Source of the DNA: an uncultured bacterium
GTDB lineage: Bacteria > Zixibacteria > MSB-5A5 > UBA10806
Assembly: GCA_965555375.1 (NCBI GenBank)
Contig: CBEWDL010000001.1
Location: forward strand, 6,180-70,179
Direction of reading: 5' to 3'
DNA length: 64,000 nt
The position numbers were made by a program, and so were the translations under genes. Shown piece by piece: positions 53,041 to 64,000 of the stretch. Within the stretch, counting starts at the first letter, position 1; each line of letters starts with the position of its first letter. Under the pieces are notes generated by a model that saw nothing but the letters and a program-made list of their open reading frames with translations, was not told the origin of the DNA and made no database searches.

Positions 53041-54018
53041 TTAGCTGAAAAATGAGTAGAATATAAAGGAGAAATATCCCAGTAGAAAAAATAGTCCTAT
53101 TGGCCGACAGATCCTGATATTCTCTTTTAAGACGGGAAATACCGCTATAGTAAACAGAAGCATAATCGGCATATTGATATATACATCCTTCTTCTCTACG
53201 GGTATGGGTAGAATAAGCGCCGCCACACCGAGTATAAGAAGCGTATTGAAAGTATTGCTCCCCAGAACCATGCCCAGATTAATCATTCCTTCCTTTTTTA
53301 TAGATGCAACAACCGAAACGACGAGTTCAGGCATTGAAGTACCGAGCGCTACTATTGAAAGGCCAATGACCATCTGGCTCACGCCAAATGATGCCGCTAT
53401 AGATACAGCGCTTTTGACCAATAGATGTGAGCCAACCAGGAGCACCGTTAAGCCGATTAGAGAAAAAAGCAGGTTATATAATGGTCTTTTCTCTTTGGTC
53501 TTCCGGCTTATGATGCCTTCGATCTCTTTTTCCGCCTCCTCTATTTCTTTTTCGAATTTGCTGAGCATCCTTTTGCGCACGGTTATGATATTGTAAGAAA
53601 TGAAAACAACAAATAAGGCAATCAATATAAAGCCGTCAAACCGGCCAATGGAGCCATCGAGGCTAAAGATGAACAAAAATAACGAAGCAATAACCAGATA
53701 CGGAAATTCTCTTCTCACAGCTCTCTCTTCCGGTTTGGGCGGGAAGAATAATATTACCAGGCCCAATATCAAACCTATGTTGGCGATATTGCTGCCGATA
53801 ACATTCCCCAATGCGATGGCGCTATTTTTCTCAAGCGAGGCAACGGTACTTACCAGGAGCTCCGGGGCGGATGTCCCGAAAGCAACAATGGTCGAACCGA
53901 TAATAAGCGGTGAAATACCGATACTTTTTGCCAACCATGAACTATGAGAAACCAACCGTTCCGCTCCCCAGTACAGCAAAGCGATACTGACGATGAATAA
54001 GAGGATATCAATAATCAT
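53041..54018 (-). CDS. Ca2+/cation antiporter (CaCA / YrbG family)
   Basis: Two alpha-repeat motifs GTSAPEL and GTSMPEL. 325 aa. 10 TM segments. Confidence 0.8.
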   Translation of the reverse strand: MIIDILLFIVSIALLYWGAERLVSHSSWLAKSIGISPLIIGSTIVAFGTSAPELLVSTVASLEKNSAIALGNVIGSNIANIGLILGLVILFFPPKPEERAVRREFPYLVIASLFLFIFSLDGSIGRFDGFILIALFVVFISYNIITVRKRMLSKFEKEIEEAEKEIEGIISRKTKEKRPLYNLLFSLIGLTVLLVGSHLLVKSAVSIAASFGVSQMVIGLSIVALGTSMPELVVSVVASIKKEGMINLGMVLGSNTFNTLLILGVAALILPIPVEKKDVYINMPIMLLFTIAVFPVLKENIRICRPIGLFFLLGYFSFIFYSFFS

Positions 54019-54140
54019 TCCAGAAGCCCGGTAATCTCGATAGTGTTGCCATATTCGATCTTGATGCTGGCAGTGTCAAAACGGCTTGATTTCCAGGGAT
54101 TGGCTGTGGCGGTGGTTGTAAAAATCAAAGGCCATCCAGA

Positions 54141-55046
54141 TCAACCGCGGATTATTTTGGAGACTATGTCGGATCGGGAAAGGACGCCGACCAGTTTATC
54201 GCCTTTGACAACCATGACGCGGTCGGCATCTTTGAATAACATCAGGGCCGCAGCCTCGACAACCTGCGCTCTCTCCGAGATGGTGGCGATATCCCGGTTC
54301 ATGACATCCTTAACGCGAACCTGATCTTCCTGTCTTAAGAGATCCTCAAACGGCTCCAGTTCCGGCAGGTGGGCCAGGTTAGCTATAAAACTCTCATAAT
54401 CAGGCAATGCGAATTCCAGAAGCTCCTTCTCGGAGATCTCACCGGTGATTTTTCCGCTGGCATCGACGACCGGAAGACCATCCACCTTATGCTTGAACAT
54501 GATGTTGGCGACGTTTTTCAGGGAATCATCCGGAGATACAGTGGGAGTTTTCTCCGACATAATATCGGCGACAATTAAGGCTTTCTGGACCCTTATGCCG
54601 GCGTTCTCGATGACGCTGATAAGTTCTTTAGATGAACTAACCGCAGCGATCTTATCGATGATCTCCGACCGGCGGGCGAAGTTGGCGAGGCCGGATAAGG
54701 TCTGGAGATAAAGCTTGGAAATATTTCTGGGGGTCAACAGAAGGCAGATGGCCCTTAATGAAATCCCATCAGGGGCATCGGTATCTATTCCCTCCTTTAT
54801 GATTCCCAGGACAATATGTAGATCATCCACGGCATCGGTGCGTGCGTGGGGGAAGGCGAAACCTCGCCCGAAGGAGGTGGAACCGTATCCTTCCCTCTCC
54901 ATAACGGCCATCAATATCTGATTTTTGTTCCTGTCGGGATATTTGCTGCAGAAGAGATTGGCCAGGTGTTCAACGGCCTCGTCTTTAGTTTTGACCCTCA
55001 TATCCACATCGACTAAATCACTATGGAAGAATCGAGCCAGATTCAT
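54141..55046 (-). CDS. PTS EIIA(Ntr/fructose)-type domain fused to a CBS pair
   Basis: FAFPHAR phospho-His motif in the N-terminal domain. Two CBS repeats C-terminal. Confidence 0.65.
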   Translation of the reverse strand: MNLARFFHSDLVDVDMRVKTKDEAVEHLANLFCSKYPDRNKNQILMAVMEREGYGSTSFGRGFAFPHARTDAVDDLHIVLGIIKEGIDTDAPDGISLRAICLLLTPRNISKLYLQTLSGLANFARRSEIIDKIAAVSSSKELISVIENAGIRVQKALIVADIMSEKTPTVSPDDSLKNVANIMFKHKVDGLPVVDASGKITGEISEKELLEFALPDYESFIANLAHLPELEPFEDLLRQEDQVRVKDVMNRDIATISERAQVVEAAALMLFKDADRVMVVKGDKLVGVLSRSDIVSKIIRG

Positions 55047-55071
55047 TCTTTAACTCCCTGTTCCCTTCCGT

Positions 55072-55740
55072 TTAAGATTTCACCTGTGTTGCTGCCCCGG
55101 GCGGTCTGGATTCAATCCTCTCCATAACTCGAATTTCCCGTGGCGCCGAGATGCTGCCCGAAACAAAAAATTTAATTCCATCTTCCACCGAAATGTCGAG
55201 AATTTTCGCCTCCCCCGCAGGGAAAAGTATGGCCATCCCGGAAAAAGGTGTTGGGGTTGAAGGTATAAAAATGCTCCAGAATTCTTTCTCGCCGTCGGCA
55301 AGATGAATCTTAAGACGATTGGCCAAAAAACCCAGGGCATAAGCTCCCTTGCGAGGATATTCGACCATCACAACATTCTCGAATGTTTTCTTGCCCGGGA
55401 CCGCTATTCCCTCTATGAGCTGTTTCGATGCCGAGTAAAGAATCCTGAAAAATGGAATCTTTAAAAGAAATTTCTCCCATAGTCGGTATATCTTCTGACC
55501 GAAGACGTTGGTCGTCAATATTCCGGTGAGCATGATTAGCATCAGAGTAACCACCAAGCCTATAAAAGGGAATCCATAATCCTGGCCGAGAATTCTCACG
55601 ATATAAGGCTTTATAAAATTGTCTATGGATTCTACGCCGAATTTTAGTATAGCCAGGGTAACAAACAAGGGCACGATAATGAGGACTCCCGATAGAAACC
55701 TGGTTTTTATCGTTATCTTGAATTCGTCTTTGAAACTCAT
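55072..55740 (-). CDS. DUF502 family membrane protein
   Basis: Two N-terminal TM segments with GVLIIVPLFVTLAIL, then a soluble domain. The ORF track start at 55776 is extended; MSFKDEF is the likely start. Confidence 0.55.
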   Translation of the reverse strand: MSFKDEFKITIKTRFLSGVLIIVPLFVTLAILKFGVESIDNFIKPYIVRILGQDYGFPFIGLVVTLMLIMLTGILTTNVFGQKIYRLWEKFLLKIPFFRILYSASKQLIEGIAVPGKKTFENVVMVEYPRKGAYALGFLANRLKIHLADGEKEFWSIFIPSTPTPFSGMAILFPAGEAKILDISVEDGIKFFVSGSISAPREIRVMERIESRPPGAATQVKS

Positions 55741-55914
55741 TAGATTTAATATTCGGGTGAACCCGACCGGTGTCAAGCGAAAAGGATTTCACCGGCCGTA
55801 GCCGTACCCTTTGATAATTTATATTCCCATTGATATTTTCGGCTGGCAATCTGTTTATATAAGCTCAAATCCCGGTGTTATTTCAGGCCGGGGCAATTGT
55901 GCGACTCTATTCAT

Positions 55915-57342
55915 TCATAGCTGGGGGAAAAAGACACGGGCCGCCTGGCTGGCCCACTCATAGAAGGTCGACGGCAGCACGCAGATCAAAATGACCATAG
56001 CTCCCGAGATTGCTATCCCCAGCCCGAGAGTTGGCCCGAAAGGTATCCTCGATTCGTCCTCGTGCCTGTGGAAAAACATCTTGCGGACCACGTTCATGTA
56101 GTAGAATAACGATACCACCGACATCAAAAGGGCGATGACAACCAGCCAGTAGATATGCTCCTTTATAGCGGCGGCGAAAAGCCAGTATTTGCCGAGAAAA
56201 CCTGCCGTCGGAGGAATGCCGACCAGAGACAACATAAATATAGTCATCATAGCCGAGGCCAGGGGATTTCTCCTAATCATGCCGGCGTAGTCGTCAATTT
56301 GATCTGATCCGGTCATGTTGGAAAAACCGATGGCCACCATGAAAGCGCCGATGTTGGCGAACAGGTAGGCCATCAAAAAGATCATCATCCCGATAATAGA
56401 ATGCCCGTTACCCGCGGCGAGGGCAACCAGCACATAGCCGACCTGAGCGATCGAAGAATATGCCAGCATCCTCTTGATATTGGATTGCAGAAGAGCCACG
56501 AAATTCCCGATCACCATGGCCAGCACTGCTACGATTTCCAGCAACAAGACCCAATCGGTCTTGGCAATGATGAGAGGGCTGAAGAAAATCCTGACGAAAG
56601 CCGCCAGTCCGGCTGCTTTTGAGGCCACCGAAAGAAAAGCCGTAATGGGTGTGGGAGCTCCTTCATATACATCAGGGGCCCACATATGAAACGGTGCCGC
56701 GGCCAGCTTGAATCCGAATCCCGCAATAAACAAAACGATGGCCAATCCAAGCCCCAGGCTGAGGCCTTCGCCGGTCAAATCCCAGCTTTTGATATCGGCC
56801 AGCATGGTGGTGCCGGTGAGGCCGTACAGGAGGCTCAAGCCGAAAAGCAGAATGCCCGAGGAGGCCCCTCCGATTATGAGATATTTCAGCCCGGCCTCCG
56901 TTGATTTCAGATCTCTCTTCAAAAAGGCGGCCAGCACGTAAAGAGGAATGGTGGCAAGCTCTAATGATACATACAGCGTGATAAGCTCGCCGGCCCCTGC
57001 CAGGAACATCATACCGACAGTGGCCAGAAGGATGAGACCGTAAAACTCACCTTTATGTTTGATTCTTATTTCCACATAATCTATGGACGCAATAATCGTC
57101 AGCATTGCCGAGAGAAGGAATATTTCGTTAAACAGTCTGCCATAATCATCGGATAAATAGGTGCCGAAGAAACCCTGTCCGTTATCGGCGAACACCGCCA
57201 GGACTGCGGTTATAGCCAGTCCCAGAATGGAGAGATAGCCGAGGCCTCTGCGGCTGCCGTCCTTTTTGAAAAAATCAATGGCTATGATGAGCACCGCCCA
57301 GCACGTCAGAAAGATCTGTGGAATGATTAACGAAATATTCAT
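55915..57342 (-). CDS. nuoN: NADH-quinone oxidoreductase subunit N
   Basis: 475 aa. About 14 TM segments. Antiporter-like motifs. Position after nuoM. Confidence 0.85.
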   Translation of the reverse strand: MNISLIIPQIFLTCWAVLIIAIDFFKKDGSRRGLGYLSILGLAITAVLAVFADNGQGFFGTYLSDDYGRLFNEIFLLSAMLTIIASIDYVEIRIKHKGEFYGLILLATVGMMFLAGAGELITLYVSLELATIPLYVLAAFLKRDLKSTEAGLKYLIIGGASSGILLFGLSLLYGLTGTTMLADIKSWDLTGEGLSLGLGLAIVLFIAGFGFKLAAAPFHMWAPDVYEGAPTPITAFLSVASKAAGLAAFVRIFFSPLIIAKTDWVLLLEIVAVLAMVIGNFVALLQSNIKRMLAYSSIAQVGYVLVALAAGNGHSIIGMMIFLMAYLFANIGAFMVAIGFSNMTGSDQIDDYAGMIRRNPLASAMMTIFMLSLVGIPPTAGFLGKYWLFAAAIKEHIYWLVVIALLMSVVSLFYYMNVVRKMFFHRHEDESRIPFGPTLGLGIAISGAMVILICVLPSTFYEWASQAARVFFPQL

Positions 57343-58871
57343 GATCCAAGTATCAGTTTAACGAGGTTATCGACTGTATCTTTTATGAAAACATTCAAAA
57401 CCTTAGGATAGACTCCTATCAAAAGGGTAAGAACGGCCAGAGGGAAGACCGTGAAGATTTCCCGACCGTTGATCTCTGTTAAACCTTCCCATCTGGTGTT
57501 GAACTGCCCCAGGAATATCCTCTGGATCATCCTGAGAATATACCCGGCGGTAAGAACTACTCCCAGTATGGCCAGGATGACTATCCATTTAGAGACGAAA
57601 ATTGACTGGAATGAGCCGATGAAGACCATGAATTCGGAAATAAAGCCGCTCATCCCCGGAAGTCCCAGCGAGGCCATACCGAACAGCACGAAGATGCCCG
57701 TATAGACGGGCAGTTTGACTCCCAATCCGCCGAATGCGGCAATCTCTCTGGTGTGGGCCCTGTCGTAGATAACCCCCACCAGAAGAAACAAGGCCCCGGT
57801 TATCACACCGTGGGAAAACATCTGGAACAGACAGCCTGATATCCCGACTGTTGTTATAGCTGCCATACCGAGCAGGCAAAAACCCATGTGCGAAACAGAG
57901 GAGTAGGCCACCAGTTTTTTGAGATCTTTCTGCGCCATGGAGACCAGGGCGCCGTAGATGATGCCGATCAGCCCGAGAATCGCTAACGGAATTGCGTAGG
58001 CGATAGTCGCTTCGGGGAACATGGGGAAAGAGACCCTCAGAATGCCGTAGATGCCCATTTTCAACAATATCCCGGCCAGGATGACCGATACGGCGGTCGG
58101 GGCCTCCACATGGGCGTCGGGTAACCACGTGTGGAATGGCCAGACCGGGACTTTGATGGCAAAGGCTATAAAGAAGGCGGCGAAAACCCACATCTGGAAC
58201 AGGTGAGAGTAGATCGAGTTCTGCCGTATAAGCGCCAGCATGTCAAGAGATCCGACAGTGAAATACAGGGCCAGAATGCCGACCAGCATAAAGACCGAGC
58301 CGAAGAGTGTATAAAGGAAGAACTTGATCGCCGCGTATTCCCGTCGAGGGCCGCCCCAGACGCCGATTAAGAAATACATCGGCACCAGCATAATTTCCCA
58401 GAAGATGTAGAATAAGAAGAAGTCGAGGGCGCAGAAGACGCCGATCATACCGGTCTCGAGCAGTAGAAACCAGGCGAAATATTCTTTTACTCTGTCTTTG
58501 ATGCCGAACGAGGCGATAATGGAAACGAAGGACAACAGTCCCGTTAAAAAGAGCATCGGCACCGAAAGACCGTCGGCGCCCATTATATACTGAACATTGA
58601 CCTGCGGGAACCAGGCCACCGGTCTGGCGAAATCGAAAACGAATCCCTGAGTCTCGCTATAAATATTGAAAAGCATCCCCGTGCCCATGGCCTCAAAGTA
58701 AAACCAGACCAAGTAGATGGAGAGTACGAAAGGAACGAAGGAGAAAAAGGCGGCGGTCCATCGTATCGCCCCCACCGATTCCTTCTTCAAAAGGAGAATC
58801 GCCACGATCCCGATTAAGGGGATGAAGGTCATATATGTTAATATTGGAAATGGTAATGTAATCGGTTCCAA
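57339..58871 (-). CDS. nuoM: NADH-quinone oxidoreductase subunit M
   Basis: 510 aa. Conserved WLPDAHVEAPT motif. Confidence 0.9.
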   Translation of the reverse strand: MEPITLPFPILTYMTFIPLIGIVAILLLKKESVGAIRWTAAFFSFVPFVLSIYLVWFYFEAMGTGMLFNIYSETQGFVFDFARPVAWFPQVNVQYIMGADGLSVPMLFLTGLLSFVSIIASFGIKDRVKEYFAWFLLLETGMIGVFCALDFFLFYIFWEIMLVPMYFLIGVWGGPRREYAAIKFFLYTLFGSVFMLVGILALYFTVGSLDMLALIRQNSIYSHLFQMWVFAAFFIAFAIKVPVWPFHTWLPDAHVEAPTAVSVILAGILLKMGIYGILRVSFPMFPEATIAYAIPLAILGLIGIIYGALVSMAQKDLKKLVAYSSVSHMGFCLLGMAAITTVGISGCLFQMFSHGVITGALFLLVGVIYDRAHTREIAAFGGLGVKLPVYTGIFVLFGMASLGLPGMSGFISEFMVFIGSFQSIFVSKWIVILAILGVVLTAGYILRMIQRIFLGQFNTRWEGLTEINGREIFTVFPLAVLTLLIGVYPKVLNVFIKDTVDNLVKLILGS

Positions 58872-58888
58872 CTAATCCTCCTTTATCG

Positions 58889-61057
58889 TCAAATTAGCTT
58901 TATAAATAAGAAGACCACGGCGCCGAAAAACACCACCAGCGCATAGGTCTGCAATTGCCCGGTTTGTATCTTTCTGAGAGTCCTGCCGAAAAACATCGAG
59001 ACATGACCTGTGCCGTTGACGGCGCCATCGACTACATACGTATCGAATCGCTCATGTGCCCATGAGAAAAACAACGTCAGCTTTGCCGTGCCGTTGACGA
59101 TGCCATCTATTATAAGGAGATCAAATTTGAATAGAAAATCGGCCAACTTATATGTCGGATTAATTATGACAGCCATGTACAGCTCATCGAAATACCACTT
59201 GTTAAACAGGAGTGTATAGATCGGCTTGAACCTCTGTGCCATTTTCACCGGGGAGATTGCTCCTCTGTAATACATAAGATATGCCAGGCCGATACCGGAT
59301 AAGGCCACAACCAGCGAAATAAGCATAAGTAAAATGCTGGGTTCCACGTGGTGGACCGCGCCATAATAGACGAAGGAGGAATACCCTTTATGAAGCCAGG
59401 GGATACCGACCCAGCCGGCGCAAACCGACAGCACGGCAAGTATCATCAATGGAATCGTCATGTTTCTGGGGGATTCGTGGGCATGGTCATAGGCGTGCTG
59501 ATCTCGCGGCTTACCAGTAAATGTCATAAAATACAGCCTGAACATGTAGAAGGCAGTCATGCCTGCCACGAGGATTCCAATCAAGAGGAAGATATAATGT
59601 CCTCCGGCGAAGGCTGTGGCGAAAATCTCATCCTTCGACCAGAAGCCGGATAAAGGAAAGATCCCCGATATGGATAAGCTGGCGATAAGGAACGTTATGG
59701 ATGTTATCTTCAATTTTTTGTGCAGTCCACCCATAAACTGGATGTCGTTGGTGTGGACGGCGTGGATAACCGAACCGGCGGCTAAAAAGAGGAGGGCTTT
59801 GAAACAGGCATGGGTCATAAGGTGGAAGGTCCCCGCCGCGAAACCCGCCAACCCCAGGGCCATGATCATATAACCCAGCTGTGAGACGGTGGAATAGGCG
59901 AGAACACGTTTTATATCATTTTGAACTAAACCTATGGACGCCGCCAGAAACGCCGTGAAAGCTCCCACCGATGCTACCACATACATCATGGTCTCCGATA
60001 TCATAATAATTCCCATCAGGCGGGCGGTCAGGTAAACACCGGCGGCCACCATGGTGGCGGCATGGATCAGGGCGGAGACCGGTGTCGGGCCTTCCATGGC
60101 GTCGGGCAACCACACATGGAAGGGAAACTGCGCCGATTTCCCCGCGGCACCGCAGAACATCAGGATACCGGCAATAGCCACCAGCGGCAGCATATTCGAC
60201 GCTATCTGGCCGTTGGCGATCATATAATCGATTTCGGGTAGGGATGCTGAACCGACGGCGAAGATGAGTATCACCAATCCGAGGAGAAATCCCAGATCGC
60301 CGATCTTGGTGGTTACAAAGGCCTTCTTGCCGGCATCGGAGGCGGATTTCTTCTCGAACCAGAAGCCTATCAATAAATAGGATGTCAACCCCACCAGCTC
60401 CCAGAAAACGAACATCAATACATACGTGCCGGCTATCACCAGGCCGAGCATGGAGAAGGTAAACAGCGAAAGATAGGCGAAATATCTGGCGAATCGGGGG
60501 TCACCGTGCATATAGCCGAGAGAGTAAATTTGCACCAGAGATGCTATAATGGTGACCACCATCAGCATGACCGCCGCCAGCGGATCTATATATATCCCCA
60601 CGGGAATGACGAAGGCGCCTTTCTTGCCATGCCTCTGAGGCTCCTGGAATTTGAGATGGTGCCCGGATTCGCCGTGTTTCCCGTTATCCTCTGGATATAT
60701 GGAATCTACCGATTCCGAATATTCCGCTTCCGGCTCCAGAAGAGATTCAACTTCATCAGCCTCCGCAACGGTTGTTTCATGGATCTCTGTTGCGTCGCCA
60801 TGCTCATTCTGGCCGAGGGTTATAGCTTCAGCCCCGGACATGCCGCCATCGCCAAGGACAACCCATTCGATCCAATATTCCCTGGGCGTGGGATCTTTCA
60901 AAACCTCGATCAGGACGACAACAGATAGGACAAACGATGCCAGAACCATCCCGATGGAAAAATAGCTGGAGACCTTATTGCTTTTGTTCAGGAAGAATAC
61001 GATCAGGATGAATGCCAGCAGGGGAAGCGCCGCTATGATCCAGCTATAAGGCAACAT
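58889..61057 (-). CDS. nuoL: NADH-quinone oxidoreductase subunit L, with an ~80-90 aa acidic/His-containing insertion after the first two TM helices
   Basis: 722 aa. WLPDAMEGPTPVSALIHAATMV motif. C-terminal long amphipathic helix region. Insertion MSGAEAITLGQNEHGDATEIHETTVAEADEVE...GHHLKFQEPQRHGKKG. Confidence 0.9.
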   Translation of the reverse strand: MLPYSWIIAALPLLAFILIVFFLNKSNKVSSYFSIGMVLASFVLSVVVLIEVLKDPTPREYWIEWVVLGDGGMSGAEAITLGQNEHGDATEIHETTVAEADEVESLLEPEAEYSESVDSIYPEDNGKHGESGHHLKFQEPQRHGKKGAFVIPVGIYIDPLAAVMLMVVTIIASLVQIYSLGYMHGDPRFARYFAYLSLFTFSMLGLVIAGTYVLMFVFWELVGLTSYLLIGFWFEKKSASDAGKKAFVTTKIGDLGFLLGLVILIFAVGSASLPEIDYMIANGQIASNMLPLVAIAGILMFCGAAGKSAQFPFHVWLPDAMEGPTPVSALIHAATMVAAGVYLTARLMGIIMISETMMYVVASVGAFTAFLAASIGLVQNDIKRVLAYSTVSQLGYMIMALGLAGFAAGTFHLMTHACFKALLFLAAGSVIHAVHTNDIQFMGGLHKKLKITSITFLIASLSISGIFPLSGFWSKDEIFATAFAGGHYIFLLIGILVAGMTAFYMFRLYFMTFTGKPRDQHAYDHAHESPRNMTIPLMILAVLSVCAGWVGIPWLHKGYSSFVYYGAVHHVEPSILLMLISLVVALSGIGLAYLMYYRGAISPVKMAQRFKPIYTLLFNKWYFDELYMAVIINPTYKLADFLFKFDLLIIDGIVNGTAKLTLFFSWAHERFDTYVVDGAVNGTGHVSMFFGRTLRKIQTGQLQTYALVVFFGAVVFLFIKLI

Positions 61058-61779
61058 CAGTTGCTACCCCCGGTCTCATTCTGATTCCTGGCCGCCTGAA
61101 TATTATCCGTTTCGACAGGCGGCTTCCCGTTCTCTGTTTTCACCATCTTGGATATTTCCTTGAAAGCTCCGGCTATGGGAGCCGCCATGGGGTTACCGGA
61201 GACAAGAGTGGGTATGCTGGCAATTAAGTTCATTGTTATTCTGTCTCTCATATTATCCCGGTTCAGACCTGTCAGGCCCATGCTGTAAGAGAAAGATGTC
61301 AAAGCGATAAAGAATACAGCGATGACGATAACCCCGATCCTGCGGAAGTTGCCAGGATGTGCGCCGGCCAACGCTCGCCAGGTGACCACGAAAGGAAATA
61401 CCGATATCATAATGGCGCTGGCGAGGCCGAAAATTATCCCCCGCCACAGGACCACCATGAAATTAATGTTCTTGAACATCCCCAGAACTTCGGGCGAGTC
61501 GACGAGAGAATACGAGATAAATCCAAACCCGAAAAAGACGGCCAGTATGAATCCCAGAGCCCAGCCGGATTTCAGAGAAGCCCTGGCTTTGAGCGATGAG
61601 GACTTTTTGTAATACAGGAGAAAACCCGCGGTAGAAAGAAGGAATATCAGATAGTACAGATCGATGGGCACCTTGAACAGGTTTACGAATAAGAGTGGGA
61701 GACCGAAAAGGAGCATGCATAAATCAAAGATCCATACAAGATGTTTCCAGCTTCGGGTATTTAAGTTGACCGATATCAT
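61057..61779 (-). CDS. Hypothetical polytopic membrane protein inserted between nuoK and nuoL
   Basis: 240 aa. About 6 TM segments. Stop overlaps the nuoL start by 1 nt. No family recognised. Confidence 0.5.
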   Translation of the reverse strand: MISVNLNTRSWKHLVWIFDLCMLLFGLPLLFVNLFKVPIDLYYLIFLLSTAGFLLYYKKSSSLKARASLKSGWALGFILAVFFGFGFISYSLVDSPEVLGMFKNINFMVVLWRGIIFGLASAIMISVFPFVVTWRALAGAHPGNFRRIGVIVIAVFFIALTSFSYSMGLTGLNRDNMRDRITMNLIASIPTLVSGNPMAAPIAGAFKEISKMVKTENGKPPVETDNIQAARNQNETGGSN

Positions 61780-61783
61780 AATC

Positions 61784-62092
61784 TTACCATTTCATGAAGT
61801 TGATTTTGTCCACCTCGATGCCGCGGAAATTCCTGTATAACAATATGACAATAGCCAGGCCCACGGAGGCCTCTGCGGCGGCGATCGTTATTATGAATAT
61901 CGCAAAGATTTGACCTGTGATCGCCTCCGGTGTCAAAAATCTCGAGAATGCCACAAAATTTATATTGACCGCATTAAACATAAGCTCGATGGACATCAAA
62001 ACGCCCACAGCGTTGCGACGCGTCAACAGGCCGAATATCCCGATGCAGAACATTGCGGATGAGAGTATCAGATAATGTGTCAATCCAGGCAT
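61784..62092 (-). CDS. nuoK: NADH-quinone oxidoreductase subunit K
   Basis: MPGLTHYLILSSAMFCIGIFGLLTRRNAVGVLMSIELMFNAV. 3 TM segments. Start taken just after the nuoJ stop. Confidence 0.85.
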   Translation of the reverse strand: MPGLTHYLILSSAMFCIGIFGLLTRRNAVGVLMSIELMFNAVNINFVAFSRFLTPEAITGQIFAIFIITIAAAEASVGLAIVILLYRNFRGIEVDKINFMKW

Positions 62093-62093
62093 T

Positions 62094-62948
62094 CTAACTA
62101 TCCTTCCTGGCAATAACTATGGCGCCCATAAGGGCTGCCAGCAAAAGAACCGAAACCACCTCGAACGGCAATACGAATTTCGACATCAACAGCCGCCCGA
62201 TAGTCTCAGTGTTACTGTTGGAAAGCTTTATGGTGATTTTCTGCTCATCATTATTATGGCTTGATAAAATCCAGATCGCATTGGATATTGCATCGTAGCT
62301 GACCTTCTCGCTCCAGATTTTTAGATAGATGCTCTGCTCGTCTGAAAAGACGGTTTGCTGGGTGGAGAAAGCCGGGCTGGCCGAGAGTATGTATCCGTTG
62401 CCCCCAGCCGGTTCCGGCGCCGGTTCTGCGAACTGGGTCTGCCCCAACTCATCGTTTATAATGTTAATGCGCCCCACGGCGCCAAAACTTTCTCCCAGCG
62501 TATCTCTGATATTGGCAGTCCAATGCCACTGCATGCCGTCTGTGAGCAAATCTGAAGCCTCGATGGACGCTGTCCATGATCCCGTATTCCCGGGAGCGGG
62601 AGGGGTATCACCGAAGGTTCTGACCATGGCTATTACGGCCAGGACAAAGAAAAGGCCGGCTATGATGAACGCAGGAATTACCAGTTCGTTTACCTGCCGG
62701 ATCGATCTTGATTGTATCTGATAAGTTAACATGATGGCGAACAGGATAAGTATTGTAACTGCTCCGACATAGATGAGCACCTGGACCGCGGCGAGGAATT
62801 CCGCTTTTAACATCAAATATATTCCCGCCACGAAGAAGAAGGTTAAGACGAGAAACAGCGCGGAATGGAATACGTTACGAAGAGTGACAACCAGGATGGC
62901 ACAAACGAGGATCACTCCGGCAAGAAGATAGAATAGGAACAGGCTCAA
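62094..62948 (-). CDS. nuoJ: NADH-quinone oxidoreductase subunit J, with ~130 aa hydrophilic insertion
   Basis: AVQVLIYVGAVTILILFAIM signature. C-terminal ...VVSVLLLAALMGAIVIARKD. 284 aa, versus about 170-200 typical. Confidence 0.8.
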   Translation of the reverse strand: MSLFLFYLLAGVILVCAILVVTLRNVFHSALFLVLTFFFVAGIYLMLKAEFLAAVQVLIYVGAVTILILFAIMLTYQIQSRSIRQVNELVIPAFIIAGLFFVLAVIAMVRTFGDTPPAPGNTGSWTASIEASDLLTDGMQWHWTANIRDTLGESFGAVGRINIINDELGQTQFAEPAPEPAGGNGYILSASPAFSTQQTVFSDEQSIYLKIWSEKVSYDAISNAIWILSSHNNDEQKITIKLSNSNTETIGRLLMSKFVLPFEVVSVLLLAALMGAIVIARKDS

Positions 62949-63526
62949 GAGACTCCCTCCTCCTCATCCCGGGGCGTATCCCGGTCGGGATTTAACGGTT
63001 TGGCTTCCAGGGTCGACTCGGCAGTATCCGTTGATGATTCGGCTGGCTTTGCTTCGCGTTTTTTCTTTTTCTTTGGCTCGTATTTGACGTCGCGGCCTAT
63101 TTCCTGGAGCCTGTCCTTATCGTAAATCAGCTCCTGCTTGTTAAAAACGGAGAACTCGTATTTGCCGGTGAGCTTGATACTGTCAAAATTGCAGACCTCC
63201 TCGCAGATCCCGCAAAAACAGCAGATCGTATTGTCTATTTTGAATTCGCCGGGATATCTCTTCTTGGTTTCCGGATCTTTTACCTGTTCTACATATATGG
63301 CGTTGACAGGGCACTGTTTCATGCACACCAGACAGGCGTTACAATTGAGTTCGCCGGTCTCCGGATCGGATAACAGGACGACCACGCCTCGCGAGCGTTC
63401 CGGCATGATCCAGCGCTCATCCGGGTATTGAAGAGTAACGGATTTTTTGGGAAGATATTTGCCGGTCGTTTTCAGGCCAACCAGCAAGTTCCAGAATCCT
63501 TTGACAGTGTCTTTGATCGCGCTCAT
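62945..63526 (-). CDS. nuoI: NADH-quinone oxidoreductase subunit I (2x[4Fe-4S]) with Lys/Glu-rich C-terminal tail
   Basis: CNACLVCMKQCP and CCFCGICEEVC ferredoxin motifs. About 45 aa charged tail (EPKKKKKREAKPAESS...). Confidence 0.85.
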   Translation of the reverse strand: MSAIKDTVKGFWNLLVGLKTTGKYLPKKSVTLQYPDERWIMPERSRGVVVLLSDPETGELNCNACLVCMKQCPVNAIYVEQVKDPETKKRYPGEFKIDNTICCFCGICEEVCNFDSIKLTGKYEFSVFNKQELIYDKDRLQEIGRDVKYEPKKKKKREAKPAESSTDTAESTLEAKPLNPDRDTPRDEEEGVS

Positions 63527-63527
63527 A

Positions 63528-64000
63528 TTATTTAAAGAGATAAACTCCCAATCCGGTTAAAATGAGATTGGCAAACGCCAGGGGCAGCAAAAACTTCCAG
63601 GCAAAACTCATGAGTTGATCGACGCGCAGCCGGGGATAAGTCCACCTGAACCACATCAGCACGAAGACCAAAAACAGAGTTTTGCCGAAAAACCAGATCC
63701 AGCTCGGTATGAAAGATAATCCCGGCAGAGGCGGCTGCCACCCGCCCAAAAAGAGCGTGGTAGCCACGGCAGAGACGGTAAACATATTCACAAATTCCGC
63801 CAGGAAAAACATGGCGAATTTCATTCCCGAGTATTCGACATTGAATCCGGCCACCAATTCCTGCTCGGCCTCCGGCAGATCGAATGGCGTTCTATTGACT
63901 TCCGCTACGGAGGCTACGAAATAGATCCCGAATCCCAGAATCTGCGGAAGCCAGAACCATCGCCAGAAATACGGGCCCTGCGCCTCGACAATGTCCACCA
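63528..64000 (-). CDS. nuoH: NADH-quinone oxidoreductase subunit H. Only the C-terminal part is in the window; the N-terminus lies beyond position 64000
   Basis: [39 protein letters not shown] conserved NuoH segment. Confidence 0.85.

Follow-up and report, generated by a model that had tools for sequence, protein, structure and literature searches.

Why should an operon for respiratory complex I carry a gene for a further polytopic membrane protein in the middle of its membrane arm? The question is raised by a stretch of 64,000 nucleotides (nt) from an uncultured bacterium of the Zixibacteria (GenBank assembly GCA_965555375.1, contig CBEWDL010000001.1, positions 6,180 to 70,179), referred to as a whole as the window, in which a gene of 240 codons, here called X, lies between nuoK and nuoL. 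X recurs at this position in related operons, its product appears from its sequence to be a degenerate offshoot of a CPBP/CAAX-protease-like family that has no name, and its presence coincides with that of an acidic insertion in NuoL. Based on this gene context, we propose, with a probability of roughly 55%, that X is a non-catalytic accessory membrane protein that partners NuoL. The complex I family, including enzymes with 11 subunits, is well known, as are accessory proteins confined to single lineages, but we found no report in the literature of a CPBP-like gene between nuoK and nuoL, of an immunoglobulin (Ig)-like domain in NuoJ or of the NuoL hairpin insertion described below.

A conserved extra gene between nuoK and nuoL

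On the minus strand, positions 55915-64000 form a single tightly packed operon, as judged from the list of open reading frames (ORFs) and from Pfam and NCBIfam scans, and homologues of NuoH, NuoI, NuoJ, NuoK, NuoL, NuoM and NuoN are all present in it and colinear, bearing out the order nuoH-I-J-K-X-L-M-N that a first-pass annotation had proposed from the DNA letters. That annotation had also described X as coupled to nuoL by a TGATG overlap, which is read directly in the sequence: the stop codon of X and the start codon of nuoL share base 61057 (ctGATGttg, with X ending AAC TGA). The same 1-nt overlap is found in all nine loci whose junction is readable. Homologues of X fall into 38 clusters with identities from 100% down to 29%, and X lies between nuoK and nuoL in 11 of 11 distinct X-bearing loci (the window, L002, L004, L005, L008, L009, L010, L013, L014, L016 and L017), so the extra ORF is not peculiar to one nuo operon. 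Its origin in a frameshift or an assembly artefact, a possibility that the first-pass annotation had itself raised for the insertions in NuoJ and NuoL, is ruled out by the recurrence of X and of both insertions across many independent assemblies. The contig scan for X relied on a single back-translated peptide pattern (5 loci), and taxonomic breadth is under-sampled to that extent.

The alignment of X homologues contains invariant Gly, Pro, Trp and Arg positions and the motifs SGWALG, LWRGxxFGL, PFxxxWRAxAG and PTLxSGNPxAxPI, with a conserved GGxN at the extreme C-terminus. Within the same loci X evolves faster than its neighbours, at 44-76% identity vs 77-96% for NuoH, NuoK, NuoL, NuoM and NuoN. 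Public gene calls list it as 'hypothetical protein', often with 219 amino acids (aa) and beginning at Met22 (window 61716-61779); these calls are too short and the 240-aa reading is correct, because Trp16 does not vary even across the wider family to which X belongs. Wherever the records of close homologues of X, of NuoJ and of the adjacent genes give a name at the phylum level, it is candidate division Zixibacteria or Candidatus Zixiibacteriota, except at L008 and L009, whose metagenome-assembled genome records bear the title 'uncultured Ignavibacteria bacterium'. An operon that lacks X, L011, falls in a cluster named Zixibacteria bacterium 4484_95.

Family and fold of the X protein

X had been described in the first-pass annotation as a membrane protein of no recognisable family. 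This holds as far as curated models go, with no Pfam or NCBIfam match and no match to the Rce1-like model PF02517 even at E<=1, but it does not hold at the level of profile searches. A profile of X homologues, searched against 1.8 billion representative sequences, retrieved 540 of them at E<=1e-3 (237 with the cutoff set to E<=1e-10), which align over profile positions ~8-225 and share the invariant residues W16, G118, P129 and G168. This wider family of ~540 representative clusters has no Pfam model, and PF02517 was detected below threshold in 12 of 50 sampled members (best E 5e-4), one such match spanning the model region of motifs 2 and 3. When the X alignments were used as profiles against PDB sequences, nothing significant was returned, and the wider alignment gave no match; the pairing of profile positions 123-159 at E 0.5 with 9wcx_G, a 'prokaryotic respiratory supercomplex associate factor 1' from mycobacteria, was judged to be noise. 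An AlphaFold2 model of X built from 30 homologues (predicted local distance difference test score, pLDDT, 71; predicted template modelling score 0.71) contains seven long helices, and when it was compared with the PDB by Foldseek the sole reasonable match was SpdC (6u0o), with a template modelling score of 0.49, a probability of 0.82 and an E-value of 0.97. The predicted fold is a polytopic one of the Rce1-like type.

The residues that characterise the wider family are missing from X and its nuo-linked relatives. Position 121 of X is occupied by Asp or Glu in 42 of 45 members of the wider family and in none of 28 nuo-linked X proteins; His is found at position 166 in 43/45 vs 1/28, at position 204 in 40/45 vs 0/28 and at position 208 in 44/45 vs 6/28, and a C-terminal LPPH motif of the wider family is also absent from the nuo-linked subfamily. 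In no member of the subfamily are the conserved Asp and His residues all retained. Nor do the 28 proteins carry the CAAX protease motifs EExxxR, FxxxH and HxxxD/N: the Glu positions are hydrophobic, and the motif-1 Arg (R113) is the only residue of the catalytic motifs that is kept (26/28). Compared with Rce1 and the CPBP family (PF02517; 4cad), X is without the EExxxR Glu residues, the FxxxH His and the motif HxxxD/N, and it has no match above threshold. Because the conserved Asp, the three His and the LPPH motif have all been replaced, X appears to be a degenerate offshoot, now fixed in the nuo operon, of a His-rich CPBP-like family, the ancestral form of which was presumably metal-dependent. 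The two His-bearing relatives examined, P0037 and P0038, are encoded outside nuo operons, in unrelated contexts.

Hallmarks of the wider family (P0044-P0186) are WxGxxYGxxD, YHxGYxEFR, NPxxxxxxHxxxH and the C-terminal LPPH. In some of its members a further domain is fused to the C-terminus (beta-lactamase-like, peptidase M23, Germane, DUF2807 or alpha/beta-hydrolase), and a ResB domain is another fusion partner. Since fusions to extracytoplasmic domains speak for a C-terminus outside the cell, and since the Lys/Arg-rich loop at residues 58-72 of X agrees with this orientation, the sequence suggests a topology of seven helices with the N-terminus inside and the C-terminus outside, and the conserved GGxN of X is accordingly predicted to be periplasmic.

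Insertions in NuoL and NuoJ and the layout of the operon

The first-pass annotation had noted an acidic, His-containing insertion after the second transmembrane helix (TM2) of NuoL, and alignment with relatives lacking X delimits it to 78 aa (coordinates in Table 1). It sits at the turn of the TM2-TM3 beta-hairpin, between ...YWIEWVVLG and AFVIPVGIYIDPL, and consists of 24% Asp+Glu and 8% His; NuoL family models match the protein only from about residue 146 on, and its best PDB match is cyanobacterial NdhF1 (E 1e-149, ~50% local identity). The flanks of the insertion are conserved (GDxGxxG and SGHHLxFxEPxRHGKKG), and between them lies a middle part that is hypervariable both in length and in sequence. 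Across seven loci the whole insertion measures 78-109 aa with 19-30% Asp+Glu and 7-12% His (two more loci failed the pattern match, and another one was checked by eye), and the acidic and His-rich composition of the middle suggests that this part is disordered. NuoL has its N-terminus outside in solved complex I structures, and the TM2-TM3 hairpin loop should therefore face the periplasm.

The NuoL insertion and X go together. All ten of the X-bearing loci with a readable NuoL N-terminus (of 11) have the insertion, with 145-184 residues ahead of GIYIDPL, vs 75-76 residues in three syntenic X-less operons of Zixibacteria or relatives (L011, L012 and L015), which lack the TM2-TM3 insertion and have a short NuoJ. 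Two of these X-less operons (L011:9737-11833 and L015:6828-8999) encode a NuoL with an acidic and His-rich insertion of 54-74 aa in another place, between TM6 and TM7; that of L015 contains ...GQHHGEEAGNQSHAMAAESHEEVAEANHEVV..., and by topology this loop is periplasmic as well. It looks as if an acidic, His-rich outer surface of NuoL was gained convergently in two lineages, and its occurrence in a different loop where Zixibacteria lack X may point to selection for a surface of this kind.

NuoJ carries an insertion of its own. About 130 extra hydrophilic residues had been read between its conserved helices; the insertion is real and comes to 121 aa by alignment with a relative that lacks it, but it is not merely hydrophilic, since structure prediction from 68 sequences (pLDDT 83.6) confidently yields a folded Ig-like domain, an eight-strand beta-sandwich. 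The NuoJ family match is split by it into residues 16-118 and ~231-283, and NuoJ/ND6 chains in the PDB, the best match being cyanobacterial NdhG, align to residues 4-104 and 246-283 only. NuoJ has five helices, with its N-terminus outside and its C-terminus inside, and an insertion in the TM4-TM5 loop should therefore be periplasmic. A full-length NuoJ query placed the insertion in ~100 independent clusters at 90% identity (NuoJ of 266-299 aa), the named ones all being Zixibacteria; a search with the insertion by itself gave 3 close matches. L008 has X and the NuoL insertion together with a NuoJ of 162 aa that is devoid of the Ig-like domain, and the NuoJ domain is therefore separable from X. 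From these sequences, X, the NuoL loop and the NuoJ domain appear not to share a single time of acquisition: the NuoL loop is found with X throughout, and the NuoJ domain could have been gained after X or lost in the L008 lineage. In L016, NuoJ is spread over two ORFs that overlap (101 aa and 166 aa; L016:1755-2532), with the break just ahead of the Ig-like insertion, which may reflect an assembly frameshift or a truly divided gene.

A Lys/Glu-rich C-terminal tail of NuoI, another feature of the first-pass annotation, is present. It is variable: NuoI of relatives ranges from 158 to 220 aa, and the tblastn alignment to L004 spans residues 1-145 only. Pfam searches with the isolated NuoJ insertion, NuoL insertion and NuoI tail returned nothing meaningful. 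Taken together, the closing idea of that annotation, that the antiporter arm has been elaborated in this lineage, perhaps by added subunits or surface domains, is supported by the position of X in the 11 loci and by the insertions in many assemblies.

Table 1. Coordinates, within the window, of the operon genes, of the inserted or additional segments and of the downstream block.
Feature	Coordinates	Strand	Basis or remark
nuoH, 3' part	63528 to beyond 64000	-	88-93% identical to NuoH (PF00146) of syntenic loci
nuoI, 193 aa	62945-63526	-	TIGR01971 matches residues 17-140
NuoI Lys/Glu-rich low-complexity C-terminal tail, residues ~146-193	62948-63091	-	outside the NuoI model
nuoJ, 284 aa, TTG start	62094-62948	-	PF00499, E 1.6e-40, in two stretches
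NuoJ insertion, residues 122-242, 121 aa	62223-62585	-	TM4-TM5 loop; alignment with a relative without the insertion
nuoK	61784-62113 as listed (109 aa); probable ATG at 62092 (102 aa)	-	PF00420, NF004322
gene X, 240 aa	61057-61779	-	no Pfam or NCBIfam match
nuoL, 722 aa	58889-61057	-	NF005141, 666.8 bits vs cutoff 556; PF00662, PF00361, PF01010
NuoL insertion, residues 70-147, 78 aa	60617-60850	-	alignment with X-less relatives
nuoM, 510 aa	57339-58871	-	TIGR01972, E 1.7e-175
nuoN, 475 aa	55915-57342	-	TIGR01770, E 3.6e-126; last operon gene
DUF502, PTS-EIIA(2)-CBS and Na/Ca exchanger block	53041-55776	-	directly downstream of nuoN

The listed start of nuoK, a TTG at 62113, probably lies too far upstream: the models PF00420 and NF004322 begin at residue 11-13 of the 109-aa ORF, NuoK of relatives has 102 aa, and the true start is likely the ATG 21 nt downstream. 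nuoM and nuoN overlap by 4 nt. Plus-strand ORFs over nuoL and X were taken as shadow ORFs. No Rfam family scored above threshold on either strand of the window, and neither promoter-like sites (13 vs 13.2±3.3 in shuffled controls) nor terminator-like sites (16 vs 10.7±3.6) were clearly in excess.

Syntenic relatives show the order nuoA-B-C-D-H-I-J-K-X-L-M-N, of which the window covers the distal two thirds, followed by genes for a DUF502 protein, an EIIA-CBS protein and an Na/Ca exchanger, and the genes 3' of nuoN in the window match this downstream order. Immediately ahead of nuoH, L002, L010, L011, L012 and L015 encode nuoABCD with no nuoEFG between; L013 has the same order and starts at nuoB, with nuoA outside the view. 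No nuoEFG genes were found within the operons of L002, L010, L011, L012, L013 and L015. Judged from the gene content of these relatives, the enzyme appears to be of the 11-subunit complex I type, and since the operon encodes no NuoEFG, electrons probably do not come from NADH bound by a module that the operon itself encodes. The relatives share this nuoABCDHIJKLMN set without nuoEFG with cyanobacterial NDH-1 and partial Nuo complexes, the best PDB matches of NuoJ and NuoL are NdhG and NdhF1, and partial Nuo complexes without NuoEFG have been discussed as ferredoxin-dependent (PMC6349859).

The block 3' of nuoN is syntenic in X-bearing and X-less operons alike (the window, L002, L004, L011 and L012), is extended in relatives by genes for an M48 peptidase and a CNNM/CorC protein, and may be an ion-homeostasis module tied to the pump. 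Two loci depart from the common layout. The NuoL match of L010 (L010:11913-20888, from the complete Zixibacterial genome CP070813.1) ends at residue 706 of 722, and nuoM and nuoN were not found within the 6.8 kb 3' of nuoL, where five genes without Pfam matches are located, which suggests a rearrangement or insertion at this point. The X-less operon of L015 contains two genes for GT4-family glycosyltransferases between nuoM and nuoN (L015:10498-11636), indicating that unrelated genes can enter these operons.

What X may do for complex I

We propose that a gene of the CPBP/CAAX-protease-like family was inserted between nuoK and nuoL in one Zixibacterial clade, where it would have become translationally coupled to nuoL and lost the conserved Asp and the three His. 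X and NuoL would be co-produced through this coupling, and X, with its ~7 predicted TM helices, would dock on NuoL, the antiporter-like subunit at the distal end, and scaffold or stabilise it, by analogy with degenerate CAAX-protease-like proteins of other bacteria. The NuoL TM2-TM3 insertion, which coincides with the arrival of X, would be the most plausible contact or companion element of X, and most X-bearing operons in addition have the predicted Ig-like domain in the periplasmic TM4-TM5 loop of NuoJ. Precedents for such a role exist: SpdC is a scaffold of SagB (10.1101/2020.05.21.109470), and SpbR binds SpsB, with LnsB likewise being non-catalytic (PMC12260438). The resemblance has its limits, since X shares only ~8% sequence identity with SpdC/LyrA of Staphylococcus aureus (6u0o), LnsB and SpbR and has ~7 TM helices compared to their 8. 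The partners of these three proteins are cell-wall or secretion enzymes, whereas the partner presumed for X from gene context is a respiratory antiporter-like subunit.

Cyanobacterial NdhL, NdhP and NdhQ offer another comparison, being lineage-specific small subunits of the membrane arm, some of them located beside the distal NdhF/NdhD. Like X, they are lineage-specific membrane additions to this arm, but they consist of one or a few helices, are unrelated to CPBP proteins and are encoded mostly outside the core operon, whereas X, by its predicted fold and its residues, would be a seven-TM pseudoenzyme encoded within it.

Several observations weigh against X as a partner of NuoL. What ties X to complex I is gene context, namely its place in the operon, its translational coupling to nuoL and the fact that the NuoL insertion occurs along with it. 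Sister lineages have the same operon without X, which is therefore dispensable for the core mechanism, and the fast divergence of X would suit a peripheral role and, equally, a passenger gene. The domain fusions of the wider family suggest functions in the cell envelope, and the role of X could be unrelated to complex I. The fold assignment comes from a model of medium confidence with a Foldseek E-value that is not significant, for a protein without a Pfam match, and the nuoA-D layout without nuoEFG is known from the relatives alone, because the window stops within nuoH.

These observations leave room for other roles. X might be an assembly factor or chaperone that is co-expressed with nuoL, inserts, folds or attaches the enlarged NuoL and is absent from the mature complex. 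Operon position and translational coupling fit this explanation as well as they fit an accessory partner, X co-occurs with the novel NuoL loop and evolves faster than the core subunits, and CAAX-protease-like proteins can regulate their partners rather than be structural subunits (PMC12260438). The 1-nt overlap, however, implies about equal output of X and NuoL, which would be unusual for a factor needed in catalytic amounts, and we regard this role as doubtful. Neither the position of X nor its overlap with nuoL has varied, even though X has diverged to ~44% identity, and this invariance, the strict co-occurrence of X with the NuoL insertion and the loss of conserved polar residues throughout the nuo-linked subfamily, which points to a new specialised role, make it unlikely that X is a passenger gene, one that serves the cell envelope or some other process outside complex I and is retained in the operon for its expression only. 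Such a passenger would nonetheless be in line with the fast divergence of X, with the beta-lactamase-like, M23, Germane and alpha/beta-hydrolase fusions of the wider family, with the unrelated contexts of the stand-alone relatives P0037 and P0038 and with the occurrence of other passengers, such as the L015 glycosyltransferases.

An active intramembrane hydrolase or protease with a non-canonical site, acting for example on a Nuo subunit or a lipid-linked substrate, would agree with the predicted CAAX protease fold, with the retention of R113 in 26 of 28 nuo-linked proteins and with the His kept at position 208 in six of them, but it is highly improbable given that no member has the full Asp/His set, that the motif-1 Glu positions are hydrophobic and that the homologues SpdC, LnsB and SpbR, which are degenerate in a comparable way, have non-catalytic roles (PMC12260438).

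The proposal that X partners NuoL can be extended further, albeit speculatively. By the topologies set out above, the conserved C-terminal tail of X (GGxN), the hairpin insertion of NuoL and the Ig-like domain of NuoJ would all be periplasmic, and X could be a CPBP-derived pseudoenzyme recruited as a true supernumerary subunit that forms, with the two insertions, a periplasm-facing module giving the pump a new capability. Possibilities for this capability are the binding of metal cations, the docking of a periplasmic or envelope partner and the regulation of pumping from outside. We consider a module of this kind quite unlikely.

For complex I of bacteria, a minimal core of 14 (or 11) subunits is generally assumed, and few prokaryotic accessory subunits are known. 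If X is indeed an accessory partner of NuoL, a clade-wide, operon-encoded protein would provide a compact natural example of how a supernumerary subunit originates on the antiporter arm, the value of which would lie in its protease-like origin, in the loss of its polar residues and in its arrival alongside a new loop in the neighbouring subunit. The wider His-rich CPBP-like family of ~540 clusters, as yet uncharacterised, merits definition in its own right, and respiration would join the processes that employ degenerate CAAX-protease-like scaffolds.

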